A stretch of 64,000 nt of DNA from Lama guanicoe (lineage: Eukaryota). The DNA is taken from the NCBI GenBank assembly GCA_013239625.1, contig MU053881.1, positions 4,361,957 through 4,425,956 on the forward strand, in the 5' to 3' direction. The number at the start of each line of letters is the position of its first letter. The stretch's first letter is position 1. Below are positions 3,235-31,115 of this stretch, one piece after another. The notes below the pieces were generated by a model. That model saw only the letters and a program-made list of their open reading frames with translations. It made no database searches and was not told the origin of the DNA. The position numbers and the translations under genes are program-made.

Positions 3235-4250
3235 GGACTTTCATTTTAAAATGGAGATCAAGTCCATTCATTTGTATCTGCTTCTTTCTTAAACACCACG
3301 AAAATGACAAGGGAATATCAAAGGTATAAGTCTAGAAAAGTGCAAAAAAAAAAAGAGAACTTAGACATATCAATTAATTTTATGAAAAGGGAAAGCATTT
3401 GGGTAATAGTAATCAGCTTTGCCAACTAGAGAAAGCTTTAACCTAAGCCTACAAGAGAGAAACCAGAAGACCCCAAAGCATCTCAGGAATTGAATACCAG
3501 GTAGCTTGGAGATGGGATGAGGAGTAGATCTGAAAATAGTAGGAACGGCAGAAGCAGCAGGAGGCAGCAAGTACCACCATCACCACCAGCACAGCCATCA
3601 CCACCAGCATCACCAGCATCACCAGCATCAACAGCGAGATCACCACCACCACCATTCCCTCCCTCAACTGGTAAATCCAGACAAACATCCTTCCTCTATC
3701 ACAGCAAAACCCTGGATGTGTTGCTTTGGGGAAAGATGAATTGGAGAGACACTACTGCAGCTCAGAATAGGTGCAAAAGATTTTATTTTACAAGGGTGGT
3801 AAACGAAAGTTTCCATGTGGAGTACAGAGATCTGCCCTGGGTATCAGGACAACAGCCCCCAGGCTGGAGGTTGAAGGACTCCTTCCTAGGGAAGCTAAGC
3901 AGTCTAAGAGCAAAACCAAGTCACCACTTTTTCTGCACAATGGTGACGCTCGCTGAAATCAACAAGCCCCACTGATGAGCTTTCCAACAGCTTTTCAGCT
4001 CTTACAGATGAACACCAGCGCAAGCCACCAGACAACCAAACAAAACGAACAGAAAAGAGGAGAATCAAAAGGTGGCAGAGATGATGCTGAAGGCAGAAGC
4101 AAACTGCCAAGGAATGAAAAGAAGACCCATGGCGATAATACCCCCGGAGAGAGAGGGGCAGCTCCTCCACCCCTGAGATAAGACTAAGAGGCTATAAAAA
4201 TGAAAGGTCAGAGAGTAAGAAAAGTCCGTGTGAAAGAAAAGAAAATAGAA
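3235..4250 (+). mobile_element. Very old L1M/HAL1-like 5'/ORF1-region remnant
   Basis: A-rich, purine-skewed degenerate sequence resembling ancient L1ME 5' regions; recognised only loosely. Confidence 0.35.
3572..3655 (+). repeat. Compound (CAC/CAT/CAG)n trinucleotide repeat
   Basis: caccatcaccaccagcacagccatcaccaccagcatcaccagcatcaccagcatc...caccaccaccaccat. Confidence 0.85.
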
Positions 4251-8217: not shown

Positions 8218-8348
8218 CTCCAATGTTTTAGTTATTGTGAATAATACTGACATGAATATGAGTGCTGGTAATAGCTCTTTAATATCTCCAATGTTTTAGT
8301 TATTGTGAATAATACTGACATGAATATGAGTGCTGGTAATATCTCTTT
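8218..8348 (+). repeat. 68-bp-period tandem duplication inside L1
   Basis: ctccaatgttttagttattgtgaataatactgacatgaatatgagtgctggtaata is identical at 8218 and 8286. Confidence 0.95.
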
Positions 8349-9818: not shown

Positions 9819-10147
9819 AAGATCCTGCTTTCGATTATTTAGGATAAGTACATGAAGTCCAGATTCTTAACCAGCGCCCTATCAACACGGTGATGCCTGG
9901 GGGAGGGGCAAACTTGCCTTAATGGAGCACGTTCAGCACGTCCTGAAGACGGAGCCCAGGTGTTCTGAGTGCACAAGGACTAGTATAGTAAGGGATATAG
10001 ATGGCCATGCCTACTGTGCAACCCAAAGCGGAAAAAAATGATGAAGAAGATGCAGAATCTGCCCCTGGAGATGCTCACAGAGTATTTAAAAAGGAGCCAC
10101 CCTTATTAATCAAAGGGGCTTAAACTCAACTTATAACCTTCAGATGG

Positions 10148-10246
10148 GGGTGGGGTGGGGGTATCGCTTAGTGGTAGAGCATATGCTCAGCATGCATGAG
10201 GTCCTGGGTTCAATCCCCAGTACTTCCACTAAAAAAGATAATAATA
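10148..10246 (+). mobile_element. tRNA-derived SINE (camelid Vic-1-like) with 15-bp TSD
   Basis: A-box-like 'cgcttagtggtag', B box 'ggttcaatccc', A-rich tail. TSD ataaccttcagatgg at 10133-10147 and 10247-10261. Confidence 0.9.
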
Positions 10247-10339
10247 ATAACCTTCAGATGGAGATGTCTCATGATCTTAATATACCCAGAGCAGACTGAA
10301 TCGATGCTTCAGATCTATAGTAGCAAAATAACGATGAGG

Positions 10340-10560
10340 AGGATGAAAACCTTTACTGAGTGTTTGCCCTGTGCTGCAGTTGGACACATATGATTTTACT
10401 GAATCCTTGCTACGACTGTTATTCTCATGCTTCTACAGATGAGGACACTGAAGTCGAGGGAGGTGAACCTCTTTGCCCAAGACATGCAGCTGGTGCCAGA
10501 GCTGCGGTCAAGCCAGCCCCGCCAGACTCTCAGGTCCATACCCTTGCAAGCCGCTGCCTG
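10340..10560 (-). mobile_element. MIR SINE
   Basis: 'tctacagatgaggacactgaagtcgagggaggtgaacctctttgcccaagaca' MIR core. Confidence 0.7.
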
Positions 10561-11189
10561 CTTTTGGCCCTGACGTCAGATCGCTGTGCCTTCCCCTCTT
10601 CCAGGAAGCTGGCTGAATCAGGCTCCTGGAGGGGCTGCGTGGGCCAGGCCCCATTCCTAACAGCGAGGAGCCTTTACTACTGACAGAGACACCAGCAGAT
10701 TTCAACACTCTGATTTCCTCATCTTCCTTTCCCAGCATGTGGCCCACTGCTCCGTGACGCAGTAACAGTCAGGGAGCAGAGGTCAGGGGATGAGGTGCGT
10801 AAGGAGCTAGACTTCACCTGCTGCTTGTGCGACCACATCACCTCTCCACTGCTCCCTTAGCATCCCTTGGCAATCTCCCTCTGTGCCGCACAGAGACCTG
10901 AGCAGTCTTTTTAAAGTGTAAAACAGCTACAGTCTTTTCGTGGTTTCCCACTGTTCTTAGAATAGAAGTTGCACACCCTACCCTAGCCTACGAGGTCCCA
11001 TGCGATGCTGCCCTTGCTTGCCTCTCCCATGTGATCCCACTCCACCAGGAGATCAGCCTACTCACTCACCACGGTTTGGCCAAGCAAGCTGGGTCCTGTT
11101 TTCGCCTCACTCTGATCAAATGTTCCTTCTCCAGAAAGGCCTTCCCCAATCATCTTTAGGTAAATTAGACTTCCCCTGCTAGCATATAA

Positions 11190-11730
11190 CCTTTTTAAAA
11201 AAAATCAGTAATTTTTACTGGGGTAAAATATGCATAATACGAGATTTACCATTTTAACCATTTTTTAAGTGTAAGCTACAGTCACAATTTTGTGCGACCA
11301 TCACCACCATCCCTCTCTGGAACCTTCATTATCCCCAAAAAAGAACTCTGCATCCACTAAACCTTAATTCCCCATCCCCTTCCTCTCCCAGCCCCAGTCA
11401 CCTCTATTCTAATTTCTCTTTCTACGAATGTGCCTGTTCTAAATACCTCATTTCAGTGGAATCAACTGGTATTTCTCCTTTTGGGCCTGCCTTATTTCAT
11501 ACGGCGTAATGTCTTCAAAGGTTCATCCATGTTGTAGCTTGAATCAGAATTTCCTTCCTTTTTAAGGCTGAATAGTATTCCACTATGTGTATATTTCACA
11601 TGTTGGTTATTCACTCGTCGGTTGCTGGTGATGTGTCATTTCCACCTTTTGGCTACTCTGAATAATGCTGCTATGAACACTGGCATACAACCATCTGTTA
11701 AGAGTCCCTGCTTTCAATTATTTGGGGTAT
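11190..11730 (-). mobile_element. L1MB-type 3' end (duplicated at 13815-14355)
   Basis: 'tttaccattttaaccattttttaagtgta...gttcatccatgttgtagc...tcagaatttccttcctttttaaggctgaatagtattcc...aataatgctgctatgaaca'. Confidence 0.8.
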
Positions 11731-12431
11731 CACAGAACCTTTTGAACTGTCTCTATAACACTCCACTACCCAAAATTATTTTGCTTATTCGTTTGTTTGC
11801 TAACTTGATTTCCATGCCCCTCCAGGAGTCTCCTTGGATGCAGGAAACTTGCCTGTTTGGTTCGTGGTTGTTATCACAGTTGATGGCAGGTGCTTCATAA
11901 ACATTTTTTTAAAGGGTGAATGAATGAATGAGTAACACTGCAGATGGGCCAGTCTGTTGGGCACAAGACTAGTCACTTCTAAAATGAGGACATGTCTGAA
12001 ACACTAAAATGTTGACAGGCATTCACAGACATTATTTAAATTTTTTTCCTCTTTAAAAACGCAAATTTAAATCAAAAATGACATCCATACCTCAGTCCAT
12101 GGAAACGAATAATGGCTGCCCAATCATTAAAGCATCGGGAAGTTGGAGAAATCAGAGAAATATTCTGCCGATGGTCAGCGTGTCTGCGCTGCTGGTCAGG
12201 GCAGGTGAAGGGGGGCGGTCCTGGGACAAGGGCCCAGTCTCCCCTCCCCGAAGTGAGCACATCTCTTTGCTGGCCCTGATCATCTGGACTTCCGTGAGGA
12301 GGAAGATGCTTCAGGAGAGACAGCAGCCCCTTAAACCCCAATGAAACTACCGTGTCAGGGCAGCAAGGCTGGGGCACGTCCCCAATGCCCCTCCTTACGC
12401 GTGTATGTGCACATGCGTGTGCAATATTGTA

Positions 12432-13178
12432 TGTGATACTGTGCTTTATAATAAATATATATTTGGTCTTCATCCCTGTTTCTGGCACAGAGCTCCTAAA
12501 ACCCTTAGAATTCCCCAAAGGATGCAGCAGTCTTTGGAGTTCATAACACGCCCCTTTCAACCACACCTGAGTTTGCTAATGAGGTGACTTTTGGAAAGCC
12601 CCTGAGGATGGAGGCTGGTTGTCAGGGAAACCAACCAGGATTAGAGGGTTGGAATTTTCAGGCTCACTCCCCGCCCCCCACCCAAGCTGCCATAATGAAG
12701 CCTCCATAAAACCCCAAAAGGATGGGGTTCAGAGAACTTCCGGTTGGTGAACACGTGGAGGTGCAGGGAGAGCGGTGCCCTCCCGGAGGGGCGTGGAAGC
12801 CCCTTCCCCAGCGCCTTCCCCTAGGCATCTCTTCCGTCTGGCTGTTCCTGAGTTATTTTTTCTAATGAACTAGTAAACTAGTAAGAACAATGTTTTCCCG
12901 ATTTCTGTGAGCTGCTCAAGCAGATTAATGAGACCCCAAGGAGAGAGAATCATGGGTTCTGATTTATAGCTGACAGATCGGAAGCACACGTGACAGCCTG
13001 GACTTGCGATTGGCATCTGCAAGGGAGGGTGGACTGTCTTGGAAGACTAAGCCCTTAGCCTGTGGGATCTCACGCTATTTCCAGTTAGATGGTGTCAGAA
13101 TTGAATTACATAATAGAACTTTCACTCGGTGTCCACTGAGTTTTGAGTTAATTGCCTGGTAGTGTTGGAAAATACACT
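12432..13178 (+). mobile_element. MER21-family LTR (copy 1)
   Basis: 'tgtgatactgtgctttataataaatatatatttggtcttcatccctgtttctggcacagagctcctaaaaccctt...ttagagggttggaattttcag...ggacttgcgattggcatctg...gtgtcagaattgaatt'. Confidence 0.8.
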
Positions 13179-13256
13179 ATGGAATGTGTATGTGTGTGTA
13201 TGAGTATGTGTGTGTACGTTTGTGGATGTGACTGCAAAGTGTGTATGTGTGTGTGA

Positions 13257-15880
13257 GGGCTGCGTGGGCCAGGCCCCATTCCTAACAGCGAGGAGCCTTT
13301 ACTACTGACAGAGACACCAGCAGATTTCAACACTCTGATTTCCTCATCTTCCTTTCCCAGCATGTGGCCCACTGCTCCGTGACGCAGTAACAGTCAGGGA
13401 GCAGAGGTCAGGGGATGAGGTGCGTAAGGAGCTAGACTTCACCTGCTGCTTGTGCGACCACATCACCTCTCCACTGCTCCCTTAGCATCCCTTGGCAATC
13501 TCCCTCTGTGCCGCACAGAGACCTGAGCAGTCTTTTTAAAGTGTAAAACGGCTACAGTCTTTTCGTGGTTTCCCACTGTTCTTAGAATAGAAGTTGCACA
13601 CCCTACCCTAGCCTACGAGGTCCCATGCGATGCTGCCCTTGCTTGCCTCTCCCATGTGATCCCACTCCACCAGGAGATCAGCCTACTCACTCACCACGGT
13701 TTGGCCAAGCAAGCTGGGTCCTGTTTTCGCCTCACTCTGATCAAATGTTCCTTCTCCAGAAAGGCCTTCCCCAATCATCTTTAGGTAAATTAGACTTCCC
13801 CTGCTAGCATATAACCTTTTTAAAAAAAATCAGTAATTTTTACTGGGGTAAAATATGCATAATACGAGATTTACCATTTTAACCATTTTTTAAGTGTAAG
13901 CTACAGTCACAATTTTGTGCGACCATCACCACCATCCCTCTCTGGAACCTTCATTATCCCCAAAAAAGAACTCTGCATCCACTAAACCTTAATTCCCCAT
14001 CCCCTTCCTCTCCCAGCCCCAGTCACCTCTATTCTAATTTCTCTTTCTACGAATGTGCCTGTTCTAAATACCTCATTTCAGTGGAATCAACTGGTATTTC
14101 TCCTTTTGGGCCTGCCTTATTTCATACGGCGTAATGTCTTCAAAGGTTCATCCATGTTGTAGCTTGAGTCAGAATTTCCTTCCTTTTTAAGGCTGAATAG
14201 TATTCCACTGTGTGTATATTTCACATGTTGGTTATTCACTCGTCGGTTGCTGGTGATGTGTCATTTCCACCTTTTGGCTACTCTGAATAATGCTGCTATG
14301 AACACTGGCATACAACCATCTGTTAAGAGTCCCTGCTTTCAATTATTTGGGGTATCACAGAACCTTTTGAACTGTCTCTATAACACTCCACTACCCAAAA
14401 TTATTTTGCTTATTCGTTTGTTTGCTAACTTGATTTCCATGCCCCTCCAGGAGTCTCCTTGGATGCAGGAAACTTGCCTGTTTGGTTCGCGGTTGTTATC
14501 ACAGTTGATGGCAGGTGCTCCATAAACATTTTTTTAAAGGGTGAATGAATGAATGAGTAACACTGCAGATGGGCCAGTCTGTTGGGCACAAGACTAGTCA
14601 CTTCTAAAATGAGGACATGTCTGAAACACTAAAATGTTGACAGGCATTCACAGACATTATTTAAATTTTTTTCCTCTTTAAAAACGCAAATTTAAATCAA
14701 AAATGACATCCATACCTCAGTCCATGGAAACGAATAATGGCTGCCCAATCATTAAAGCATCGGGAAGTTGGAGAAATCAGAGAAATATTCTGCCGATGGT
14801 CAGCGTGTCTGCGCTGCTGGTCAGGGCAGGTGAAGGGGGGCGGTCCTGGGACAAGGGCCCAGTCTCCCCTCCCCGAAGTGAGCACATCTCTTTGCTGGCC
14901 CTGATCATCTGGACTTCCGTGAGGAGGAAGATGCTTCAGGAGAGACAGCAGCCCCTTAAACCCCAATGAAACCACCGTGTCAGGGCAGCAAGGCTGGGGC
15001 ACGTCCCCAGTGCCCCTCCTTACGCGTGTATGTGCACGTGCGTGTGCGATATTGTATGTGATACTGTGCTTTATAATAAATATATATTTGGTCTTCATCC
15101 CTGTTTCTGGCACAGAGCTCCTAAAACCCTTAGAATTCCCCAAAGGATGCAGCAGTCTTTGGAGTTCATAACACGCCCCTTTCAACCACACCTGAGTTTG
15201 CTAATGAGGTGACTTTTGGAAAGCCCCTGAGGATGGAGGCTGGTTGTCAGGGAAACCAACCAGGATTAGAGGGTTGGAATTTTCAGGCTCACTCCCCGCC
15301 CCCCACCCAAGCTGCCATAATGAAGCCTCCATAAAACCCCAAAAGGATGGGGTTCAGAGAACTTCCGGTTGGTGAACACGTGGAGGTGCAGGGAGAGCGG
15401 TGCCCTCCCGGAGGGGCGTGGAAGCCCCTTCCCCAGCGCCTTCCCCTAGGCATCTCTTCCGTCTGGCTGTTCCTGAGTTATTTTTTCTAATGAACTAGTA
15501 AACTAGTAAGAACAATGTTTTCCCGATTTCTGTGAGCTGCTCAAGCAGATTAATGAGACCCCAAGGAGAGAGAATCATGGGTTCTGATTTATAGCTGACA
15601 GATCGGAAGCACACGTGACAGCCTGGACTTGCGATTGGCATCTGCAAGGGAGGGTGGACTGTCTTGGAAGACTAAGCCCTTAGCCTGTGGGATCTCACGC
15701 TATTTCCAGTTAGATGGTGTCAGAATTGAATTACATAATAGAACTTTCACTCGGTGTCCACTGAGTTTTGAGTTAATTGCCTGGTAGTGTTGGAAAATAC
15801 ACTATGGAATGTGTATGTGTGTGTATGAGTATGTGTGTGTACGTTTGTGGATGTGACTGCAAAGTGTGTATGTGTGTGTG
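13257..15880 (+). repeat. Tandem segmental duplication, copy 2
   Basis: See copy 1. Junction ...gtgtgtgtg-a-gggctgcgtgggcc at 13256. Confidence 0.97.
15057..15803 (+). mobile_element. MER21-family LTR (copy 2, arising from the tandem duplication)
   Basis: Identical by eye to 12432-13178. Confidence 0.8.
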
Positions 15881-16833
15881 TGTGGGGGGGTGTATTTAAC
15901 TGCATAATCTTCGGTCTCAGATCCAGTTCTGATTGAACTGGGCCACTTATAAACTTGAGACACTGGATAAGTCGCTTAAACTCTCTAAGCCTCTGGTTCT
16001 TTCGTCCATAAAACCAGATAAATAGAAACTCTCTGGCTGGGGACCTGTGAATTAAATGAGGCCACGGGGCCTGGCTCACGGTCAGTGCCAAGAAATGATG
16101 GTTGTCACTTTCGTCTTTTTCACTTTATTACTCAAATTCTTGGCCAAGAAGTCTGTTGTCGGTCACCAACAAGTTAAGCTCAACAAACTCTCCTCTGTTT
16201 CTATTCAGCTGGGGGTAGAGCACAAAGAGGGGACATTTGTGGAAGGAATGAGAGAAGATCTGATGCACAAACACATGGCAGTGCGGCACATTTTCTAGAT
16301 GTCCTCTGTGTTGTGTGTCCGTTTCCTCACTGAATCCTCAGCTGGGCCCTGTGATACCGGCTCAGCCGGTGAGGCCGCTGGGGAGACCATCCCAGGCAGA
16401 GGAGCCAGGACCCAGCACAACCGAAGGCCCGAGGAAGCGAGAAAAAGGACGCGTGTGATTCTGGAGCGCAGAGCGAATGGATGCAAAGAGGGAAGGTGAG
16501 CGAGGAGCGGATGACACAAGGGTCTGAAAGCCACACTGAGTAGTCTGGGATTTCTCCTAAGGCTGAGGGTTTTAAACAAGGAAATGAGGTCAGATGTGAG
16601 CTTAAGCAGAATGACTTTTGTACATCCAATAAAAATAAACCTACAGTTATTCCAAGGAAGAATCCAGGAGAAACAGCAGTGGCCTGGGCTGGGAAGGATG
16701 TCTCTGGGAAGTGTGTCTGAGGAAGCAACAACTCCCGGGGGGGGGGACCTGCTGGGTCCTCACGCTGACCACACCTGCCACAGCACCCTGGTCTCTAGGA
16801 GGTGGGCGTGGGCCGGGGGCTGGGACCCAGCAG

Positions 16834-16864
<31 letters not shown>

Positions 16865-17499
16865 CCCCTTGCCGCCTGGAGCCCGTTGGTCTGCGCTGCA
16901 GGCGGAGTTCCAGGAACCCACACAGAAGTCAGTGGAGGGTCTGAGCACGGAGGCCACAGGGCCTCCTGGAGAAGGGAGGTCACCAGAAGTGCGGGCACCG
17001 CAGCCACTGGGAACACTGGGAACTTGTACCATGTCAGGTTTATGGATGGGGGGTTACTTTATGTTTTGTGCCCCTATATTCACTCTTCCTTTCTCCAGTG
17101 CAAACAGGTAGCCCCTTGTGATACACAGAAGATGGCCAATGATAGCCTGCCTCCTTGGCTTCTGTATTCAAAAGCCTGAACCTGAGGTTATTACCCTACA
17201 GGGAAGAGAGGATGTCAAGTGCCTCTGAGTGCAGTAAGACAGAGGGGAGCTTCCCCATGATGGGGAAGGGGGTGGAGGCTGGGGGCACATTTAACTGAGG
17301 CCAGAGGTGCCTTCCTCTAGGGGGCCACACAGGAGGGACCAGGGGGAGACCAACAGCAGCCATGGCTGGAAGATTGCCCTGGTGACCCATTTCAGACGAG
17401 AGTCTACCATACTGGGGGCTGCGCTAAGGTAGACGGGGCCACTCAACTTGCTGACAACTGAGATCAAATTTCCAGTCACCTCGACAAGAAGGTGGACTC

Positions 17500-18340
17500 A
17501 GGGTCCGATTTAATTAGACTTCAAGGAAATAAAGTAATGCAACATTTCTTACCCGGTCAAACTGATGGAGTAGGAATTACACCCGCCGTATGTATTAATG
17601 GGACATAATCATCACACTGAGGTTTTCATCAGGAACTGTGTGGTTGCCTGGAACAGACTTTAACTTGGCAAAGTTCACATCAAAGGGAGCTGGTCACCAA
17701 GACCTGGGGCAACCTCCAGACGTGAGCTGCAGGAAGTTTGCTGGGCTTCAGGGGAGCCAACGCCTTCTTTCCGCGTCTCTCTGAGCACATGCTCCCCTCC
17801 CACTGGCAGATCCCCATCATCCGCAGGTTTTCTCTCCCTGCTCCAGCTCTGGTCCAGCTCTCCATCATGCCCTGGGGAGGCAGGAGCATGAAATGATGAA
17901 GACCTAGGTCGTATCCTATCTATGGAACTTGGTTCCTACATTTGCTGATTGAGGAATATTATCAATAAACGGCAACAATGTAGACAAATTCTACCCCCAC
18001 GTCCCTCCTTCTCCCTTCCCCGCTAAATATATCCAGTGTGTCTATATTATCGATGAGAGGCCCATAAAAAAGACTGTAAATAAGAGCTCGACCTAATGGC
18101 AGATATATGCTCATATGGTCTCAATGGAAGTCCTCCGCAGTATTCAGACCCCACGTAGATTCATTTCTTATATCCTTTATATTTTGTGCCGGTTCCAAGA
18201 AACACTATTTCATCACGAGTAGGACTTGTTTGGAATTTCTTACTGGGATTTCAGTATATAACATATTGTGTTTACATGAACAAAATAAAATGGTTTCTTC
18301 TACAAATACTTTCCAAGTATTTTCAATAGGTGTATGATGG
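17500..18340. promoter_or_regulatory. Repeat-free candidate enhancer / conserved non-coding block
   Basis: No recognisable TE. Motifs: TCF/LEF ACATCAAAGG (17677), CAAAGTTCA (17669), ATCGAT (18049), CCCATAAAA (18061), forkhead TGTAAATA (18075) and TGTTTAC (18269). Confidence 0.35.
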
Positions 18341-20221
18341 GAAATATATTTTTAATTTTTTTTCGCCTGAGAACTGGGCTATATCTCAACCAACTGCATA
18401 CCGTAACATGCCAAATATAGTAATTCACTGAATCTCAGTTTCCCTACCTGTAAAATGGGAATGCTAATAGAGCCTACTTTGCAGGGTGATGTGAGAATGA
18501 AATAAAGTTCACTGGGGAACAAGTTTGCAACAATGTTAGTTATTCTTCTTCATAGAATATTGCAGCTACAGGCTTCATCTTTCTAAGTGATCCAGGGCCT
18601 GGATCTCTTGGTTTAAATTCTGCAAAGAACCGACCTGATTGCTATGGAATATGTCTCTCCAGGGCCAGGAATCCTCTGAAATCTGGTCCGATTAGCTTGG
18701 ACAGGGCAGAGAGGTCATGAGGCACAAACATGGCCGTCTAGGCCACTCATGTGGCTGGTGGGGAGGGTGTTTGCTGAGAAACTAACTGGTTGGGTAGCTT
18801 TGCAATGACACGTGTGTCTGGAATCAACAGTCAGAGGGATTTAGAGTCCCAGAGCTGGAAAAGCAATTGAGATCATCTGGCCCAGTCGCTCCAATTTTAT
18901 AGGTTTAGATACCGAGGCTCTAAGTAACACAGTGACCTACTTGAGGTCACACAGTGAACTGGAGGCAGAGGCTGCTCCAAAAATGCAGTTTCCTTCCTAC
19001 CCATCCAGCGGGGCAGGAGCACCGACGGGCGTGGAAGGGAGCGGTAGCTGACCCTCCCTCCAAACCCCCTTCCAGGAGCCTGGGAGTTTGTCCTGTCGAC
19101 AGCCTCAAAGCCTAGGCTGCAGGAAGTATTCAGCCTCCTGGCCCTTTGCTGCCCAACCCTGGCTACCGGATTAACCAGATTCCACCCATTCCACCCAGCC
19201 AAGCAGGTCTGACCGGCATCTGTGCTCTTTCCTCTGCACCTTTGCTCAGTGAGCAGCTTCCTTTACCTGGAAGGCCCTCCTCTCCACCCATCTGAGTTCC
19301 ACTGATGGCCTCCGGCAGATGTTCCCTAGGGCATGCCCCATCACACCCTGACCTCCCAATTCCTGTGTCTTTCCCTTTCTCGTCTGCCCCAGCCAAGGAG
19401 CACATAATCACATAGTCCCTGCTGATTTTAATTTCCTTATGTGTTCTCTCTCGAGCTTAGAAACATTCCCGACACATTTTGCTTCGGCGAAGCACCCAGT
19501 GCTCAGTAAATATTTGTTGAAGGAGTGAGTGAGTAGGTGAGTGAGTGATTGGGCAAGCAAACAAGTGAATGACAGAAGTGATGGTCAGTGGGACCCCTCC
19601 TGCCCTCAGAACCCTGTGAGTTGGACCAGCAGCAGCCTTCTTGGGCCCCGGATTTCCTGGGAAAGGTGGCGAAGGCCCTGGTTTACCCGGGGACAGCAGC
19701 TGGTCAGGGAGGACTCGCCGGGATGGGTCAGGCTGGGAGTTCCACCAGCCACTGCCCACTGAGACTTACAAAGACCCTGTCATCACACCCATTTCACCAA
19801 TGAGGAAACTAATTAAGCCGGGTTTACCGGAGAGCAGAGTCAGAGAGGTGGGTGACTGGCCCAAGGCCACTCAGAGACCAGTTGGGGAACCTCCTTTCCC
19901 CGCCTCCTCTCTGACTAACCGCCTCCTTTCCACTGCCCTGCAGGGAACTCCCCTTCTAGAGGGTCGGCTCTTGGTTTCCACACATGCCCTTCTTTATTTG
20001 GCCGCCCAGCCTCTGCTCAGGACGTCCCCCCGACCTTGCCTGAATGCCCTTTCCCCACCTCAACTTTCCAAGGCCCTGGCCTGGCAGGACCCAGCCCAAA
20101 TCTCGCTTCATCTTGAAACTTCCCCAGGTCTCCTCCAATCTGAATCAACTTCTCCATCCTCCGCAAAGAATCTCTCTCTATATCATGCTCTGATTTAATA
20201 CTTCCTTAAATCAGAATACAA

Positions 20222-20374
20222 GGAGCCGAGGGTACAGCTCAAGTGGTAGAGCACATGATCAGCATATACAAGGTCCTGGATTCAATCCCCAGTACCTCCT
20301 ATAGAAATAAATAAATAAGCAAACCTTATTACCACCCCCCCACCACAAAAATAAATAAATACTAAAAAAAAAAA
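20222..20374 (+). mobile_element. tRNA-derived SINE (Vic-1-like)
   Basis: 'gagggtacagctcaagtggtagagcacatgatcagcatatacaaggtcctggattcaatccccagtacctcc' followed by an 'aaataaataa...accttattaccacccccc...aaaa' tail. Confidence 0.9.
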
Positions 20375-21439
20375 GTTAAAAATTAAAAACGGCCATAGGC
20401 AGTTAATTAGGCAATTGTAATAAACAGCTTAGAGTGATGATAGGAAAAGCCCTCTTCATGGATGATTATGGGGCAAAAAATATATATAAGTGTTTGGCAC
20501 ATCGTGGAAGCTCAGACCATACTTTCTGGGGTGAAACGGTGTTCCACAAATTTTGGCAGACTGACGGTGTGAGTGACTGAGCAAACAGGTGCCCCACCTC
20601 TCACTGGCGCGGAGAGGACTCACTTCAGTGCGCTGGCCCGCGAAGTTCCCAGCAGGCAGCGGGGCCCCCAGCAGGTGCCTGTAACCTGCTCACTGGCATG
20701 AACTGGTCTCAGGCAACGCCGTCCCCTAGGCCACGCCCAGCCTGCATAGCTGAGCTTCCTGAACGGGGCGAACGCCAACACAAGGGCCCCAGCGGGCCGG
20801 GTGCCAGGGAGCTGCACCAGAAGGGGACAGAGTCTGTGGCCCTGCCCGCCCACCCTCAGCCCTGCCAGCTCAGTGGCTGTCCTCACTGCTCCGGCTGCCC
20901 TGGGCCGAGGTTTGGGGAAGAAAAAGGAGGGAAAAAATCAAGTTCAACCAGATGACTGAGCTGTTCTTTTAATCAACACTGGTAGAGCCCTGGGGCTGGG
21001 GTCATGAGGCGTGGCTGCAAACTAGGCCAGGGTGACTTGTGGTTCTAAGAGCACAGGCCTCAGATCTGGGTTCAGAAGTACTGATCTGGGAGGGGACCAG
21101 TTGCTGTGACCCTGGGCCAGGCCATCTCCATCTCTGAGGCTCAGATGTCTCACTTACAAAATGCAAACAATACATTGCCATATGCTAAGCCACACAGATA
21201 CTGACTCGGGACAAGTTTTTACCCTTGTGAGACGTAACAGGAAAGATAATGACAATGACATGTACATATCTGTATGTGCAGATCTCTCTCTGTCACCGTA
21301 TGTAGACAGACAGATAGACATAGACAGTGACACAGACATCACCATGATAGGTTTCCAATTGCCCTCCCTTAAGAAGGATCGGCCTTTATTCTGAGAAAAT
21401 ATCTTTCCTCTATTTTTATTATTTGGGGGTTGAAAAGGC

Positions 21440-21820
21440 TAAGGGCCTTTGTTCTTCGGTTCCCCCTGCCTGGAATCCTTCACCCACCCATCTGTCCACC
21501 CACGAACTCACTCCCTGATTAGTTTCAGAACTTTACTCGAACATCAGCTCAGGAACACCTTCCCTGACCCCTATTTAAAATTACAGCCCATCTGAGATGT
21601 GCGCTGTCCCCCTCCCCCGACCTGGTTTTCCTCCATGGTCCTCACCGCCATCGGACCCATTATTTATTTCCTGGTTTGGTCCATTGTCTGTCTTTCACCA
21701 AGAGGGCAGGGATGTCTGTCTGCCTCGTTCATAGCTATATTCCAGGACCTAAAATAGTGCCTGGTACCTAGTCGGCCCTCAGTAAATATATGCCATGTGA
21801 ATAAACAATTGAATGAATAT
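21440..21820 (+). mobile_element. L2 LINE 3' fragment
   Basis: 'ccccctgcctggaat...accttccctgacc...agggcagggatgtctgtctg...atagtgcctggtacctagt...ctcagtaaatat...ttgaatgaat'. Confidence 0.75.
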
Positions 21821-24799
21821 TTGTTTTTTAATATGTTTCTTCGACAAGATTCCAGGTGAGCCACTCACTTTTCAGCTCCCCAAACTGAGCATTGGAATTT
21901 TGCTGGTCTAGGAAATCTTTAAATCCCTGAGTAAATGTAAGTAAAAGTTTTGATAAAAGTCCCTAAATGTTAATAATGATGCCCCTGGTCCCCCTGTTCC
22001 TCTCCCCCGTCTCTTCCCCTCCCTCCCTCTCTCCTCCATCCTTATCTGTCCCTCACCAGGACTGTCCCCAGCCCAGCAGAACTCACAGGAACCCTCTGGT
22101 CTCTCGATTTGCCTAATTCACTTATTTTCTTTAAAAATCTTGATTGCAGGCCTGGCTTGGGAGAACCAACCAGGCTGTAAACAGGCTTGTAATGAAAGCA
22201 GGCCTGCCCAGGAGACCTGGAAACCTGTATCGGCAAGCCTGATCGAGATCTGACTGCGTTTACGATCCCAGGTCACAGATGAAATAAATGGAAGGTTTCT
22301 GCTGGTTTGCTTACTTCTCAATTCTGGGCCTGCTGTTCAGGGAAGTCCAGGTGCTCAATTCTGAGGATCCCTGTGGCCCTGGAAGTGCGGCACCAGGCAG
22401 GAAGGCCTCGGGAAGCTGCTGAGCAACACCCGTTGGCCTGAGGAAGGGCAGGATCGGTGTTAGGACCCTGGGCCAGAGCCAGAAGGAAGGTCAGAGGTGA
22501 AATAGACCCTGTCATTTTTGCAGCTGGGAGACTGAGGTCCACAGAATTCTGGGACTGACTTGAGATCTCACTTGGAAGAAAGAAAACCAAGAACCTGATG
22601 TTTTTTTCCCGATTCCCTGTCCAGCACCCACTGACCAGGGCAAAAGGGACTTCAGCCCTGGGCCTGGCAGTTCAGAAGACCCCCCCTCTGGCCCTCTTCC
22701 TCTCCCATAAGTGAGGAGTCTTGGGGGACAAGAAGATGTGCCCAGTTGGAGCCCATGCACCTCCCCTCCAGGTGACCCTCCAGGTTCCCAGGAGTCTGGG
22801 ATTCCTGGTTAAACGTCCCGGCCCGCTTCTCAGGCCTCGGCAGGCCTCTGCCCCATCCCACCTTCCCTAGGGTGGGGCACGAGGCCAGTGGGTGCTACTT
22901 GCTGGGGGGAGGGTAGGGGAGGAGCGATGTGTGGGCTGCTGCCCGGAGGCCCCTCACAGCGCAAGAAGACACGGAGGATGGGAAGGCAGCTGCCACATGC
23001 TGGTGTAAGACTGAGGAGTTTGATCTCATCCCAGGTCATTAGGAAGCCCTGTCACATTAGACAATAGAACCCATTTCATTAGCAGTTTATTTGCTTGGGT
23101 TATAACTTTTGAAATGTGAAGACTGTGGTTTGTGACCCAATCTGGGATGAATCTGATGTCCGGCGTATCCGTCACGGCTCAGGGCAGCATCCAGCACAGG
23201 GAGAGGCAACCCCCAGGCTCCTCTGAGGAAGGCGCTGGGAGAAGTGAGGGAGCGTGGCACCCTCCCCCTCACGCAGGCGCTTTGCATACCGCATCTAGGG
23301 CCACCCACATGTCACCTTTTCAGCTGAGGGAGCTCAGGCCCACAAGGCTTTGGCCAAGGTCACACGGCCAGGAACAGATGGCCAAAGGGCTCTCACCTTT
23401 CCCAAACAAACAGCAAGATAGTTTTGAAAGGACAAAAGGAGGGGACAGAAAGAGAGGTGTCTGGCCCTCCCGGCAGACCCCTTCAGCATGAGCAGGCTGT
23501 CCTGGCTGGGCGTCTGCTTGGCTGCTTGACCCGGCCAGCTGGGATGGGCAGGGGTCATGTGCCTCTCTTCCTGCCTACTGCTATGGTCTAAACATCCACC
23601 ATGCCGTGACTTTCTGATGAAATACCCAAACCAGACGCCTCTATGGTCCCTCCCCCATTTAGAACGTCTAAACCCTGGTCCCATCCACTGCTCCAGTTTT
23701 CTCTCTTCCCATCTCCTTCCCCTGTGCCCTGGGCTCCAGTAACAGCTTCCTAAGCCACCTTTTGCTTTTGCACATGCTACTTCCCCTGGGGATGCCCTCT
23801 CCCTCCTTCCTCCAACCAGCTAGCAATTTCTCCTTCCAGAGCCAGCTGAGTCCCCATCCATCCCCCTGGCTGTGCCCCTCCCAGAGGCCCCCAGGCTGTC
23901 TCCTCTGTGCCTTCTCAGGACTCGGCCTTCCTTGTATAAAAGGACTCCACCTGCAGGCTGATTGCTACCTGCCGGTCTCCTAGAGTAACTCCTGAGCAGC
24001 TGGGGGCCAGGGACTGGATCTCATTCTCCTCTCTGTGCCCCTGAGCAGCTTGGCCTGGAATGCAGTAGGTGCTCAGGAGAGGTCAGCTGAGGGCAGGAGC
24101 CCCGCTTCCAAAGGGTGTGCTCTCAGCGTGACCTTATTTGCTATTTACTGAGCGAGGAGGACTGGCCAGAACAGCTATAATTATCCCCATTTTATCACTC
24201 TGGAGGCTGAGAACCACTTGACCATGCTCATCTCTGGGGGCTGGGACAGCTGTAAAGCAGCCCCCATCGCTCCCCTGCTCAGCTGGGGGCAGGGGAGCCA
24301 CACTGCACCGGCCACATGCTGCCCAACCCCACATGCTGCCCAACCGAAGTGCAAGGTGGCAGGTGACCGGTTTCTCAACAATTGCCAGACTTTGCCCCAG
24401 GGCGAGGAGGAAGGGTGAAATGCGAGAGCAGGGGTAAGGAGGCCAGAGACCCTCCCTCTCCCAGGGCCTGGCAGAGGTCCAGGCTTGGGGCATTTCCAGG
24501 CAGGAGCTGGGTCCAACCCCAGGGACACACTAATGCAGGGCTGCGGAGGAGGGGAAAGGTCGATTGCAAAACCCCATGTGTGGTAGCCTAGCCGCCGGCT
24601 GCTGAGTCATGTTCCTGAGGCCAGTCGAGGACTAAAGTCGGGGACTGCAGGCCTAAACCACCTGGTGAGCACTGACCCTGCTGCTTCGCTAGCCTTCCAC
24701 ATCCAGGCCCCCCCTGGGCTCTGTGAACCCCCTTCTGTAGGGCACAGCTGTTGTTTTTCATTTTCTCCCAGCGCACCCCGCTTCCTTGGGGTGACAGCA

Positions 24800-25275
24800 C
24801 TCCCGTGTTCCGGGGAGACCCTCCTCCCCACTCTCAGCCTAGGTGCAGTTGGACTGACTTCCCCCAACACTAAGGCTGGTCGCATGGCCCGGGCTCAGCC
24901 AATCAGAACATTCTCTCTTGCCCATCCTTGGCTCCAGGATGGGAAGGAACATGGTGGATGCAGATGAGACTCAGTTCCAAGGTTTTCACCAGAAACAGTG
25001 GGAAAGAGATGCTCTCTTTTGCTACAGGGATTGCTAGCTGCCTGGAGCAACGCGAGCCTCCTCATGCGAAGTCATTGCCTGAGAATAAGGTCGCCCCAGA
25101 GACAAGCAGAACCCAGAGAGGGTCCGGAAGGATGCCCAGCCTTCTAGCCATTTTTGCGAAATTCAAAATGCACCTCTTACTTCTCAGCTCCGTGGACCAA
25201 TGCTTTCCTCTGTGTTCATGCATTTTTTAAAGTTCGGTTTTTGTCATTTACAAACAAAAGATCTCTGACGAACAC
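24800..25275 (+). mobile_element. Old MaLR LTR (MLT1K/L-like)
   Basis: 'cagccaatcagaacattc...gggaaagagatgctctctttt...gcctgagaataag...ggtttttgtcatttacaaacaaaaga'. Confidence 0.55.
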
Positions 25276-25457
25276 CACCCGGATAATATTCAGTTTATCT
25301 TCCGTATCTGTGTTCTCACTCTCTGTGTCCTGGTTTAAGTTTCGTCATTGGCCTTGGCATCTCCACCCTGGATTGTTGTTCCAGATCACCAACTGATAAT
25401 TACAACCAAATAACAGTAGGAGTTGAATAACTGCCACTTATATGCACTTCCTATTTA

Positions 25458-25596
25458 GTTTTTAAATTTATTTTTATTTTTCTTTATATGATCAATTGTC
25501 TGGTTTTTTTTTTTTTTAATGGAGGTACTGGGCATTGAACCCAGGACCTCCCTCATGCTAAGCTGTACTCTCATCCCTGCGCTGTACCCAACCCCA
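25458..25596 (-). mobile_element. tRNA-derived SINE (Vic-1-like) inserted in a MIR
   Basis: 'tttaatggaggtactgggcattgaacccaggacctc...catgctaagc'. Diverged TSD gcacttcctattta / gtgcttcctgttta. Confidence 0.85.
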
Positions 25597-28500
25597 GTGC
25601 TTCCTGTTTATTACAGGGACCCTGCAAATCGATATTCTCATCTCCCTGTTGAGGAGACCGAGGGTCAGAGAGACAAGGGACTTCCACGCAGTTCGCAAGC
25701 AGCAGGGCTAAGACTGAGTCTCAGATGGTCTGACTCCAAAGTGCACACTCTTTGAACAAAACCTCATCCTGCTTCGTTGAACTTTAGGTGGACCTTGTCT
25801 CTCCCACGACAATAGCAGATTTTTAGGGCAGGGATAATCTGGTCCTTCGGAATCGTGGAGCCATGAGTGAAGCTAGACCCTGTCAAATATCCTGGGCTTC
25901 ATGGACACTTTCGAGGGGCACTGACTCTGCTTTTGGTGCATCGTTTTTCTCCTGCCTTCATTTTCCTCTCCCCCAGTTTCCATACTCGTCTTGAACTTTG
26001 CTGCCACCCTTTCACTGGCCAGGATTGGCTGGCCTGCCCAGCACCGGCCATCACTAAGGTCAGCTGTGCTGATCAGGTTGCCTTGGGTCGCAGGCTCTGC
26101 CCTGGGATCAGTGTCGCTCAGACCAGATGGGTGGAAAGTGGGGGGCTGGTTCCTCTGGGACAAATCAAGGTGCTGTTCCTAGAAGGGATAGCCACTCCTT
26201 CTCACCCCTCAGCCACCCAAATCACCGATCATTTATTTGGTTTTGCAGCATGTCAAGCACCAGGCTGAGTACTGGCAGGACAATGAGGGACTCGGCACAG
26301 ACTCAGACTCCTCACTGATCCAGGTGGTCAGGGGTCCACTGTCTGAGAGTAAGCAGACTGTGGGCTAACCACCAAAATGTGTGGGATGAGGTCAGAGCCA
26401 AGAAAGCAGAGAGCACCATGGGAACAAATCATTTGCTTGGGGATGGGGAAAGGGGCTTTGGAGAAGCCATATTGAAGAGGTAACAGTGAGCTGGGTTTCA
26501 AAGGGTGTGGCAGCTTCCGTCAAGAAGGAGTGGCAGAGGAACAGCATTTCTGGCAAAGGGGAACAGCATGTGCAGAGATGCAGAGGTGGGAGAAATCTGG
26601 TGTATTCTGGGAAGAGAGTATAGTTGGGTGACGATGCAAAACAAGGAAGGGGAGGAGGGGAAGAGAAGCTTACAAGGGAGAGGGAAAGTGGGAAATAAAA
26701 GTATAAAATCAGTCACTATTTGTTAGGGTGACTTTTTTTAGCCTTTAGCCTAAGCTTTGCTTGGACAGCTCAAGAGGAAGTTGTTACTTCCCCAAGCTGC
26801 AGCTTCCCTTGGGAGAGGAAGGGTTAATTCAGAACACGAGGAAGAAATGCCCGGAGGGGCTGATTGTGGGAGGGAAAGACCAAGGCTGCAAGAAACTTGA
26901 GCAAGGGAGAGCGGGCTGGGGAGGAGGGGGGAAGACCAAGGAAGGGGCAGGTCAGTTGCTGAACTTAATAAAAACTTTCATGCCAAGCCCTGCACGGGAC
27001 CTTGGGTATGCAGAGATCATAGGATTCCTAGGCTGGTTGGAGGGACACACAAAGAGACAGCAAAGACAATAGAGTGGGCTGAGTTCTGTGGCTTGGGTTG
27101 TCTAGGGTCAATGAGGGCACCAGAAGTACCTCCTAGAGGAGGTGACACTGGAACTGGGCCTTACAGGATGAATAGGAGTTTGCTGCCTAGAGACCTAGGA
27201 GCTTTCATAATTTCTGTATCTCCTCTTTTATACAGACCGACCACGTAGCTACTTGGCCAATGTCTGTCCTTTCTGCTGAACTCCATGGGGGTGGAGACTC
27301 TGGCTGGCTGCCTACTGAGTTTTCTCCTGTACCTAGGACAGTGCCTGGCGGAGAGGATGTGTGTGCGCACATGAGACAGCAGCCTGGGCAAGGGCTCAGC
27401 AAAGACGCAGACAGAGGTGGCAGCAAAAAGTATTGTTCGAGACCAGGCAGGTGGGACAGGCAGAGTCCAGGGCAGAAACGACCTTGATAGACCATCTGAG
27501 CAGTTTGGATTTTACCCTCTAAACAAGGAAGGACATGATTGAATTCTTATTCACTCATTTATTCGACAAATGGTTATCGAGCACCAACTAGATGCCAAGA
27601 ATCGTGTTAGGTCCTAGCGATATGGCGGGAGCAAGACTGACCCCTTCCTCACGGGAGCCACCATTCTCATGGGAAAACAGCAAACTGGTAAGCAATTAGG
27701 GAACAGTCTTCTTTTCCACTAGTGATGAAGTGCTAGTAGAAAAATAAACACAAGTGAAAGGGTAGACACTGAGAGAAGGGGGAGGCTCAGGGCTGGATGA
27801 AGGATGCATCAGATGGGATTGTGTTCAGCTGCAAGGAGCAGAAAACCTGGCTCCCGGAGCCTCGCTGTGGGAGTTTATTTTTATCTCGCAACAGGAAGTC
27901 CAAGAGGTAAGCAGCCCAGGGCTGGATGGCAACTCAGCGGTGAAGTCAAGAAACCGGGTTCCCGCATCTTCCCGTTCTGCCTCATTAGCCTTCTCTCTGA
28001 TGCTTCAACTTTTTTTCTTTTTAATGAAGAGAATGAATTCATGCATTTCATATTTCTTTAAAAGTGCATAATTAAAAACACTTACGCTGATGCTTTGCTG
28101 ACATGTAATTTCTCCATCCGGAAAAATTCAGGAAAGTCTTATGCTCACAAAAATGACTGGTATGAGTTTTAGGGGTTGAGAATAGGGAAAGGGGCCACAG
28201 CCACATCTGGGTTGATGGGGTATATGATTGGATGGCACTGGTGTGTGTACGCAAGGGATCCGATTTCTTTACCGGGCTAATTCAGCGGAAGCAGGTATTC
28301 AAAGCAAGACACGGCCATGAGAGGATGAGCCCTGTCTCCCCCTACTCTTTCCCACCAAGAGACATTTTAGGGAGAGAATCAGGCTTCCTGAATTTTATAG
28401 AATGGGAGGCATGGGACAAGCTGATGGCAACTGACACTTGACTTTTAAAAGGATCATTCTGGGGCGGTGGGGAAGATGGATTTGGGGAGGAAAGTCTGGA

Positions 28501-29767
28501 AGCAATAGTCCTGGGAGAGATGGGGAAGCCTGGATTAGGGCGGGTGATGGGACTAGAGATGAGGGCGCAGCTCTGAGAAGCGTGGGGGAGAGTGCTGAAG
28601 GCGGGGCAGCGCAGAGCTGCACGAAGAGCCGCACGGACTGAGGGGACCCCCAACGCAGCTGCGAGGATCGGGGAGCCACGCGCACATCACCAACAACGTC
28701 TGGCCCCGCCTTTGGAGAGTCGCTGGTAACCAGCAAATCCTATGATGGCTCTTCAGGCTCCCCGAATGCTAAGAGGTCTCTGAAGTCTGCCCGCCCTTCC
28801 GTTGTTGGTGGAGCCAACCAGTCATGGAATCCAAACACCCACTGGGTCCTGGGCATTCATCAGTGTCTTGGTTGCCAATGATAAATCTGTAAAAAAACAA
28901 AAGCAAGGCAGCAGATTTTCCAGTATTTGGGGGAATGCAGAGTAAGCAGGTTAGCCCTTGGGCCCTGGTCACCAGACACATGAGTTGGTCACTGACTGGG
29001 GGAGATTCTGTTGAGAGGTGGTAGAAGTTGCTCTAAGAAACTTGGGACCATGAACATCATCCCCTTAGCAAGGAAGGGAGGTTGACTAGCCTCAGAAAAG
29101 TTCCTTTCCTGTAGATTACGACCTTTATATACAGCTAGCTCAACCGGTTTTAGGTAATCGAATATTCCACCCTGCCTGCGCCAGGCACTGCTCTAAGCAC
29201 AGGGGGACAAAGCGGACAAAAACCCCTCTTCTCGGAATTCTGGTAGAGATAATCCGAAGTCCTAAGTAAATAAGCGGCCTCTACATAGTATGTGTGCTGC
29301 TTCCTTTTGTTTTTCTGTTAAGCGGTGCTCTTGGAGCTAAATCCATCCTTCACGGCATATCTCACTTATAAGTCATTCTGGCTTTTTCTTCTTCAACCAT
29401 GGAGTCAAAAGGAGATCTGACCCAGACGTATCCTAGTCCGTCAGCAGTGGGTACCTGTTGTCTCCATGTTTCTCATTCCAGTATTTGGGAGAATTCAAGA
29501 TGGGAGTCTTGAAGCCCCGGAGGTGAAATGTCCAAAGATCAGTCAGGTGACAAACAAAGACCCAGCTTTCCCAAGCCACAGGCTGAGGCAGTACAAATGC
29601 TCCATCCCCCCGATGGTAGGACCACCTGTGCTACGTCCCAGAGCAAGCTGGTGGCCCAGGGGCAGTTTGTTGGCTCATGTCTCATGGTAAAGGCGTTATT
29701 CAGTGTACAGCTCCTGATACACGACAGAGCACTTCCACATTTGTTTTCACATTTAGTAACTCCACAT

Positions 29768-30278
29768 AGACTTGCTAAATTTAGCAAACAAATTACAGGT
29801 CACCCAGTTAAATTTGAATGTGATATTTGAAATATACTTATACTAAAGAAAAAAAAATCATTGTTTGAAATGCAAACCTAATTGGGTGTCTTAGCGCATG
29901 AGGGCTGCGGTGGCAGAATACCAGAGAACAGGCGGCTGAAAAACAAAACATTTATTTCTCGTAGTCCTGCAGCCTAGAAGTCGGAGATCAAGGCACTGGC
30001 AGGTTCAGTGTCTGGTGAGAACCCTTTCTCTGGTTCACAGGCGGCTGGCTGCTCCTGCGTCCTCACATGCCAGAAAGGGTGGTGGAGCTGCCTGGGGTCT
30101 CTTTTATCAGGACCCACTGCATTCATGAAACCTCTGACCTCATGACCTGAGCACCTCCCAAAGGCCCCACCTCCTAATCCCCTTACATGGGGCCTTAGGA
30201 TTCAGCACATGAATTTGGGTGGGACACAAGCATTCGGTCCATACCACTGAACGTCCCGTCTCTTACTGGAAACCCTAA
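29768..30278. mobile_element. MER53-like hAT MITE split by an MLT1A LTR
   Basis: 'acaggtcacccagttaaatttgaat...tacttatactaaa' before the LTR and 'cgtcccgtctcttactggaaacccta' after it. Confidence 0.65.
29887..30246 (-). mobile_element. MLT1A-type solo LTR
   Basis: 'tgtcttag...gggctgc...atttatttctcgtagtcct...gatcaagg...ccaaaggccccacctcctaat...tgaatttgggtgggacacaagcattcggtccatacca'. Confidence 0.85.
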
Positions 30279-31115
30279 CCCTACAGTCCTCAGAGGCAGG
30301 CAATATCCGTGTCCCCTTCTGGTCACTGAGGATCAGAAAGTTAACTGTTTAAGGCCACTGACCAAGGCAGTGACAGAACCAGGCAGTCCCTCTCCCTTAC
30401 TGGTCCTTGGATTCCCCCCCTGGGTGTCATCTTCAAGGCATCAAGGATGCACTGGGGTGGAGTGTGGGGAGCTTGGGACTAGAAGGGATGGAAAGTGTAA
30501 GGGAAGGCCTTGGAGGGACCAACCACCACGAGTCATGGGCCCTGTGGTCTTTGTATTAGAGGATAGCGGAGAGAGGGTTTCCACTCTTAGATGCAACGTG
30601 TTCTTGGTTTTAGTTTAGTGTACCAGGGCCCTGGCACCCCAGCCAGCGAGGCTGGAAATGCAGGAAGCCATCTGGAGCTGCGTGCTGAGTCACAGGGCCC
30701 GGAGAAAAACAAGAACATCGTGACGGCAGAGGAGGGGGTGCGGAGTCACCTCCCTCGAGATCGTGGTGGGCACTGGAAATAGAAAATGCTCCCTCTGAAG
30801 CATCTGTTAGCAGGTCCAGGATCCCTCACGTGACTGCAGTCCCCTCCCTATTAAGCGCCGACTGAATGCAGAGCTCTGTTCCCTGAGAATGTCAGCATGT
30901 CAGGTGATAGAACAGAAGTGTCTAGTTTCTTTTGGGGGGCGGGCAGGGGGGAAGTGTTCGATTTTTGTTTTTTTTCTCCCAAATCCTGGCTCATCCTCTT
31001 TTATTGCCTGTCAGCCCTTGGGCAGTTTACTGAATAACTTTCTGATCCTGTTTGATCTTCAATAATATTTATCCTCTCATTAAGATAGAGTGAGGGTTTA
31101 AATAAAATCTCACTT

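Follow-up and report, generated by a model that had tools for sequence, protein, structure and literature searches.

Fungal RIP leaves CpA-biased C>T changes that lie densely along the whole repeat and in both copies, APOBEC3 kataegis is recognised by TC or CC motifs and by strand coordination, and AID hypermutation by the WRC motif. Biased clustered substitutions were reportedly described by Dreszer et al. in 2007. For mammals, a duplication-targeted methylation and CpG mutagenesis was described by Kricker, Drake and Radman in 1992 (cited through PMC8918686), with uninterrupted homology above about 0.3-0.4 kb given for this process (PMC8918686), and asymmetric methylation with CpG loss is reported for the daughter copies of mammalian gene promoters (PMC11683416). 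The GC bias of conversion is given as 67.3% for non-allelic events (Harpak et al., 10.1101/135152) and 68% for allelic events (Williams et al. 2015, PMC4404656), and mammalian mutations have been described as clustered (PMC3639965). Within-scaffold false duplications are reported to be common in assemblies (Ko et al. 2022, PMC9516828) and to contain more erroneous k-mers (PMC9516828).

The locus described here is a direct tandem duplicate in a 64-kb window (the whole stretch of DNA that was analysed). Its 2624-base unit exceeds the 0.3-0.4 kb homology threshold of Kricker-type mutagenesis, but 5/9 of the sites at which the copies differ are non-CpG, only 4/55 CpGs differ and CpG is no scarcer in the unit than in the window. 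As in the daughter copies of PMC11683416, all four CpG differences have the CpG missing from one and the same copy. A clustering of C>T/G>A changes within rearranged DNA is shared with APOBEC3 kataegis, with AID near rearrangement breakpoints and with fungal RIP, but here there is no TC, CC, WRC or CA preference and the density is very low; unlike breakpoint-linked APOBEC3/AID hypermutation, the cluster also lies away from the junction. Clustered weak/strong differences in one direction recall GC-biased gene conversion (gBGC) and biased clustered substitutions as these sources present them (10.1101/135152, PMC4404656, PMC3157837), but unlike in gBGC clusters the strong base looks old at the three polarisable sites, and the cluster at 12348-12423 is unpolarised. 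Adjacent near-identical copies, whose differences here may be of allelic size, are likewise found in young tandem duplications and in heterotype false duplications (PMC9516828), although, unlike the heterotype cases described there, no assembly gap separates the copies here.

Results

Self-BLAST gave the copy pair as a single ungapped 2624-base match with 9 mismatches (99.66% identity), in a direct head-to-tail repeat with a tandem period of 2625. An earlier note on this DNA had described a near-identical duplicate with nine differences, and pairwise alignment returned the same nine sites with the same bases and no indels. The features are as follows (positions of the window; copy 1 given before copy 2).

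10632 to 13255, + strand: copy 1 of the 2624-base direct tandem duplicate, A/T at 9/9 differing sites
10925 and 13550: difference 1, A and G, CpG in copy 2, not polarised
11543 and 14168, 11585 and 14210: differences 2 and 3, both A and G, both non-CpG
11865 and 14490: difference 4, T and C, CpG in copy 2, not polarised
11895 and 14520: difference 5, T and C, non-CpG, within a repeat end
12348 to 12423: differences 6 to 9, T/C, A/G, A/G and A/G, the last two CpG in copy 2, not polarised
12424 to 13255: difference-free stretch, the final 832 bases of the unit
13256 to 13256, + strand: junction, a single additional A that follows the GT-rich end of copy 1 and precedes copy 2
13257 to 15880, + strand: copy 2 of the duplicate, G/C at 9/9 differing sites

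The junction adjoins a GT repeat beside a G run, and its additional A may represent either a 1-base insertion or imperfect microhomology with the GA and G-run immediately left of copy 1. No N gap was present between the copies or anywhere else in the 64-kb window, as judged from a sequence view in which a filled or depth gap would not show. The 2.6-kb unit is apparently non-coding mammalian DNA without sign of a gene. For a 23-base sequence to the right of the duplicate there were 0 exact matches in metagenome contigs, which is uninformative either way. Open reading frames are present within the duplicated unit.

All nine differences are transitions, and the alignment bore out the claim of the earlier note that they share one polarity (9/9 for both properties), as well as its count of four CpG sites (10925, 11865, 12413 and 12423; 4/9). 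The mutation load is low, with 9/1228 C/G positions (0.7%) and 4/55 CpGs differing, and the two copies have CpG observed/expected values of 0.36 and 0.38, compared to 0.32 window-wide. Sites 11543 and 11585 sit in an old dispersed-repeat fragment at about 11210-11716, which we take to be LINE-1. Using relatives of old repeats inside the 64-kb window, 3/9 sites could be polarised and six could not. At 11585, the copy-2 base was found in 3/4 in-window alignments and the copy-1 base in 1; at 11895, the copy-2 base was found in 2/4 (relatives at 19504 and 27579 carry C at the matching position), with a third base in one poor alignment and one alignment gapped; at 11543, the copy-2 base was found in 1/3 and the copy-1 base in none. 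By comparison with these repeat relatives copy 2 looks ancestral at 11543, 11585 and 11895, where the earlier proposal that it is the ancestral copy is upheld, the other six sites being unpolarised. Three polarisable sites all with copy 1 derived have a probability of 0.29 under the ordinary-mutation model. A-to-I editing of a transcript copied back was rejected because it needs one strand and an ancestral A, whereas the sites lie on both strands with G/C old at three, and plain weak-to-strong gains in copy 2 at all nine sites are contradicted at the same three.

Given nine independent sites, the probability of 1/256 previously put on the shared polarity is correct; taken together with the finding that all are transitions, it falls to 1-4 in 10,000 under independent symmetric mutation. 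Nine transitions are a 3% event at the human Ti/Tv of 2.06 (PMC10172114); the context model of this analysis has a Ti/Tv near 3, above the published 2.06, and both values are reported. In the likelihood model, the measured share of weak-to-strong transitions not creating CpG was 0.71. Neighbour gaps of 45 bases or fewer make up 5/8 of the gaps (P about 0.001 under a uniform or CpG-weighted null, the cut being picked post hoc); cuts of 30 and 100 bases each give P about 0.03, and four sites fall inside 76 bases (12348-12423; P about 0.01). The earlier observation that the changes cluster is thus supported at cuts of 30-100 bases (P 0.001-0.03), but not at 300 bases (P 0.43), and CpG density was rejected as the source of the clustering as weighting CpG sites leaves it in place. 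Given this clustering, the nine sites may stem from fewer events, perhaps as few as four; merging sites at 45 bases leaves 4 groups with a two-sided P of 0.125 for shared polarity. The last ~830 bp, pointed out before as free of changes, are indeed empty over 832 bases, but this is not unusual (P 0.32 for the largest gap) and the tail was rejected as a signal. If 100 duplicates are examined, a 1/256 event turns up with a probability of 0.32, rising to 0.98 for 1000, while for an event at 1.6 in 10,000 the probability is only 0.15 in 1000 trials.

CpG is enriched among the differing sites (4/9 compared to a background of 0.09, P 0.006). An ordinary C>T spectrum would, at assumed rates, give a CpG share of 0.37-0.50, for which the P of exactly 4 is about 0.24, and a CpG-only process was rejected (P 0.0009 for 4/9 if 90% were CpG). 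At the nine sites no enrichment was found for the APOBEC3 motifs (TC 2/9 against a background of 0.26, CC 2/9 against 0.29), for the AID motif (WRC 0/9 against 0.23) or for the fungal RIP motif (CA 2/9 against 0.33, P 0.85 for enrichment), and APOBEC-type motif shares of 0.6-0.8 have a P of 0.025 to 0.0003 given the observed sites. The density expected of fungal RIP was not matched either, with 9/1228 C/G positions changed, the final 832 bases empty and the three polarised sites in one copy. The strands split 6:3 (six G>A and three C>T) and follow one another along the unit as three G>A, three C>T and three G>A, these 3 runs being as few as occur in 9/84 orders; strand coordination of 90-80% has a P of 0.05-0.26 given the 6:3 split.

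The copies diverge by 0.34% (95% range 0.16-0.65%), which is no larger than the 0.25-0.92% between the stretch and 19 of 24 runs holding the same locus, these being rough upper bounds from word shares which leave out five runs (three with a share of 0.00 and two unindexed). The best run holds a word share of 0.86, where an allele with one copy, exactly matching either of the two here, would keep 0.93-0.96, and word shares cannot separate one copy from two. The text of the camelid papers gave no figure for per-base heterozygosity, which their supplements or figures may contain. By our judgement the odds are about 60% that the copies are a true young tandem duplication and about 40% that they are two alleles juxtaposed by an assembler. 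The lack of an N gap between the copies counts against a false duplication.

Discussion

We consider it about an even chance (probability roughly 0.5) that the pattern reflects ordinary divergence of two copies or alleles together with luck, picked from many windows, and not a new mutation process. One 2.6-kb segment would have become a tandem pair by template switching or unequal exchange at the GT/G-run, or two alleles of one locus would have been placed side by side by the assembler; with either origin the nine differences would be ordinary germline point mutations separating two lineages about 0.34% apart. Most would be C>T or G>A changes, with the usual share at methylated CpG, falling by chance mainly on the copy-1 lineage, and any on copy 2 would be T>C or A>G. 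The uniform polarity would then be a tail event selected from very many windows, its signal inflated because clustered sites are not independent. The ordinary CpG share, the lack of enrichment of enzyme motifs and the involvement of both strands favour this, while the full pattern at only 1-4 in 10,000 under independent symmetric mutation and the clustering that persists after CpG weighting count against it. Divergent haplotypes or ordinary divergence, which the earlier note had listed as an alternative, fits best, although relative to it the likelihood ratio of all rivals exceeds 1, so that it leads on prior odds alone, which were judged.

GC-biased gene conversion that affected the copy-2 lineage more strongly is an unlikely explanation, in any of three forms: a recombination hotspot that fixed G/C and removed A/T mutations in copy 2; one-way conversion from copy 1 to copy 2 with mismatches repaired towards G/C, after which only differences with the weak base in copy 1 and the strong base in copy 2 survive; or a mixture in which 12348-12423 holds A/T-to-G/C gains of copy 2 and the other five sites are ordinary C>T changes of copy 1. 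The differences are weak/strong in 9/9 and clustered, with four within 76 bases, the published biases are 67.3% for non-allelic (10.1101/135152) and 68% for allelic conversion (PMC4404656), and with the three polarised sites counted one-way conversion is favoured over chance by a likelihood ratio of about 8-9 and allelic gBGC by one of 1.5-4.8. However, G/C looks old and not gained at those three sites, and allelic gBGC at genome-average strength gives a ratio of 1.1. The published non-allelic rate would convert only 1-4% of sites over the observed divergence, and because it is too low this reading has to assume a hotspot at the locus as well as a constant direction of conversion.

It is quite doubtful that the pattern is technical, with copy 1 or its alleles coming from a region of the assembly that has little support and keeps residual C>T/G>A errors, or with a mis-joined junction. 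At each of the three polarisable sites copy 1 seems to be the derived one, which is how errors would look, the junction lies at a GT repeat beside a G run, and false duplications are reported as enriched in erroneous k-mers (PMC9516828). Errors of noisy long reads are mostly indels, however, and the 2624 bases contain 0 indels despite their eight homopolymers of 6-8 bases, nor is there a gap between the copies.

Heavier germline methylation of copy 1, with CpG decay there and the five non-CpG sites agreeing by chance, seems improbable. Copy 2 has the CpG at all four CpG differences, the CpG enrichment (P 0.006) agrees, and there is a precedent in mammalian gene promoters (PMC11683416), but the cases described in that source are relocated promoters and not adjacent copies. 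The enrichment would also be expected if both copies were ordinarily methylated, and only four sites are covered, a CpG-only process being rejected. The same five non-CpG sites are left unexplained by the repeat-induced methylation that the earlier note had proposed, and its description of such a process as novel in mammals was overstated for methylation, as repeat-linked methylation and one-sided CpG loss are already published.

The APOBEC or RIP-like process that it had also suggested found no support, with TC, CC, CA and WRC at or below background and both strands affected. A one-off, motif-free burst of cytosine deamination in one copy and on both strands, during or after duplication (for example on single-stranded DNA from resection or template switching), would, once granted, account for the pattern better than any other reading, with a likelihood ratio of 12,000-32,000 if the process were purely C>T, and agrees with the three polarised sites, the clustering and the strand order in 3 runs, but it is very improbable given the absent APOBEC-type motifs, the weak strand coordination (6:3), a cluster at least 832 bases from the junction, the density of 0.7% of C/G positions, and six unpolarised sites at n=1 locus. 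Its prior is very low because our literature search listed no paper on such deamination in a mammalian germline duplicate.

If ordinary divergence is the right reading, the locus would be of little importance, as a short duplicate, or one doubled by the assembly, in DNA without any hint of a gene. If the deamination burst were true, it would be a copy-specific RIP-like outcome not needing CpG, and would predict a genome-wide excess of young tandem duplicates with one-sided differences. Mammals would then have the means to mark one of two new copies and to mutate it at sites other than CpG, the dating of duplicates would be biased, and the long-standing idea of mammalian RIP-like processes would be revived.

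The duplicate and its differences

Self-comparison of the whole window gave a single long near-identical pair, 10632-13255 (copy 1) and 13257-15880 (copy 2), aligning over 2624 bases at 99.66% identity with nine mismatches and no gaps; the period is 2625, with a single extra A at 13256. All nine mismatches are transitions (copy-1 positions 10925, 11543, 11585, 11865, 11895, 12348, 12385, 12413 and 12423), with copy 1 always carrying A/T and copy 2 G/C, and the alignment reproduced the list of sites and bases in the earlier note exactly. The window holds no N bases and its CpG observed/expected ratio of 0.32 is a mammal-like depletion. The longest ORF in the duplicated unit has at most 167 codons (among the ORFs of at least 110 codons listed), and the unit is probably non-coding. 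Other features are:

3573-3652: ACC/AGC-rich short tandem repeat, period 9-21, within a 156-codon stop-to-stop frame
10159-10244, 20228-20388, 25505-25563, 31171-31255, 37422-37577: set of five short interspersed repeats, related at 75-85% identity (self-comparison), presumably a tRNA-derived camelid-type SINE
about 12430-13110 and 15055-15735: LTR-like stretch within the duplicated unit, same sequence in both copies, which we take to be MER21-type
60939-61812, minus strand: two ORFs of 119 and 195 codons (ORF listing), presumably resembling the end of LINE-1 ORF2

The 60939-61812 stretch aligns weakly to a repeat fragment of the duplicated unit. A second, small tandem duplicate (68 bases, head-to-tail, 8218-8348) lies 2.3 kb away from the large one; it falls within a fragment of an old repeat and shows one G/T transversion in 63 aligned bases.

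How unusual the pattern is

As a feature of the assembly the pattern is real, and it is slightly odd, chiefly for its clustering. One polarity across nine independent sites has odds of 1 in 256, as previously calculated; nine transitions are a 3-10% event at Ti/Tv of 2 to 3.5, and the two together have odds of 1-4 in 10,000. Independence may not hold for the nine sites. Of the eight distances between neighbouring sites, five do not exceed 45 bases (P about 0.001, the 45-base cut having been picked after the data were seen), and cuts of 30 and 100 bases gave P about 0.03, which at this scale upholds the clustering claimed earlier; a 300-base cut gave P 0.43. Four sites fall inside 76 bases (P about 0.01), and the clustering P values hardly shift when CpG sites are weighted up to 15-fold. 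Merging at 45 bases leaves four site groups, with a polarity P of 0.125. The unit's final 832 bases do lack differences, as the earlier note had pointed out, but this is unremarkable (P 0.32). The chance of meeting a 1/256 pattern is 0.32 if 100 duplicates are examined and rises to 0.98 for 1000, and that of meeting the joint pattern (1.6 in 10,000) in 1000 duplicates is only 0.15.

Which copy changed

In-window relatives of old repeats were aligned to the query with the differing sites masked. G was found at 11585 in three of four relative alignments (A in the other) and at 11543 in one of three (a clean local alignment, with T and C in two poor ones), and C at 11895 in two of four (G in one weak alignment, one gapped). 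These alignments suggest that copy 2 carries the older base at these three sites, none of them CpG, the reading being firm for two and weak for the third, and to this extent the claim that copy 2 is ancestral is borne out; no in-window relatives cover the other six. Three of three favouring copy 2, given the polarity, has a probability of 0.29 under plain chance, so the three polarised sites alone add little.

Explanations weighed

Likelihood ratios were taken against symmetric independent mutation, counting polarised sites and assuming rates, and the priors of the rival models run opposite to them; the weights are our judgement across both. We give a probability of about one half to chance and ordinary divergence, that is germline mutation between two copies or alleles with one polarity by luck, which owes its lead to priors rather than to any test passed. 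Clustered mutations have been noted in the literature (PMC3639965, in part).

GC-biased gene conversion, with a published bias of 67-68% (10.1101/135152; PMC4404656, in the parts available), is an unlikely but serious alternative, with likelihood ratios of 1.5-4.8 for allelic conversion on the copy-2 lineage and about 8-9 for one-way conversion at 67% bias. The older G/C at three sites counts against nine G/C gains in copy 2. At the non-allelic rate of 2.5e-7 per base per generation (10.1101/135152), 1-4% of sites would be touched (about 6% at a slower mutation rate), so non-allelic conversion would work only at a hotspot and in a fixed direction.

A technical origin is rather less probable. 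A model that puts every one of the nine changes on a single long branch reaches a likelihood ratio of 30-53, and we know of no ordinary route to such a branch besides error or consensus building. 

The leading reading would fit either a real tandem duplication or an assembly double of two alleles. At the junction a GT repeat is joined to a G run by one A with no gap, readable as a one-base insertion or imperfect microhomology. Both are usual at real tandem duplications and both are compatible with a mis-join too. Among the false-duplication marks in the available part of PMC9516828 (gaps, half depth, discordant pairs, one-copy k-mers), a gap between the copies is absent. Of the words of 10000-16500, 0.75-0.86 are found in 19 of the 24 listed runs (five organism labels, nine studies). 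For an allele with one copy only, matching copy 1 or copy 2 exactly, the share would be 0.93-0.96, so word shares cannot separate one copy from two. The implied run-to-window distance is at most 0.25-0.92%, an upper bound because words also vanish for non-SNP reasons, and the copy-to-copy difference of 0.34% (0.16-0.65%) lies inside this range. Any date drawn from that difference is no more than illustrative, since the rate figure behind it appears in PMC11102080 as a rate per year. An exact-pattern scan of metagenome contigs gave no matches.

Methylation asymmetry between the copies is doubtful, slightly more so than a technical origin. CpG makes up 4/9 of the sites by context, the four counted before, against a background of 0.09 (P 0.006); this is what ordinary methyl-CpG decay yields under assumed rates (0.37-0.50 expected). 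A CpG-only process was rejected, 4/9 being far too few (P 0.0009). Differences occupy 9/1228 C/G positions and 4/55 CpGs, and the unit is no poorer in CpG than the window. Kricker et al. 1992 reportedly proposed homology-targeted methylation with CpG-to-TpG decay in mammals. That methylation proposal is cited in PMC8918686; in the sections available, PMC11683416 describes daughter gene copies with higher methylation and fewer CpG than parent copies, and PMC10172114 human segmental duplications with CpG transitions down 7.6%, not up.

A new deamination process is the least probable, despite a likelihood ratio of 12,000-32,000 for a model in which one copy underwent C>T changes only. On the C-bearing strand, in site order, the changed C is preceded by C, A, A, G, T, C, A, A, T and followed by G, T, A, G, C, A, T, G, G. 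TC, CC and CA each occur at 2/9 (backgrounds 0.26, 0.29 and 0.33) and WRC at 0/9 (0.23), none above background, and none of the motif preferences of APOBEC, AID or RIP shows at the nine sites, contrary to the APOBEC or RIP-like action proposed earlier. The changed C divides 6 versus 3 by strand in three runs along 10925-12423 (three minus, three plus, three minus), which is not significant (9/84 orders are this ordered). For a pure C>T process with neither motif nor strand preference, no description was found in titles and abstract openings of a mostly open-access literature.

This is one locus with nine sites, where no enzyme signature matched and ordinary explanations exist. The methylation and conversion readings are of already known kinds, and the suggested novelty in mammals is overstated for the methylation version; only a motif-free burst confined to one copy would be new.
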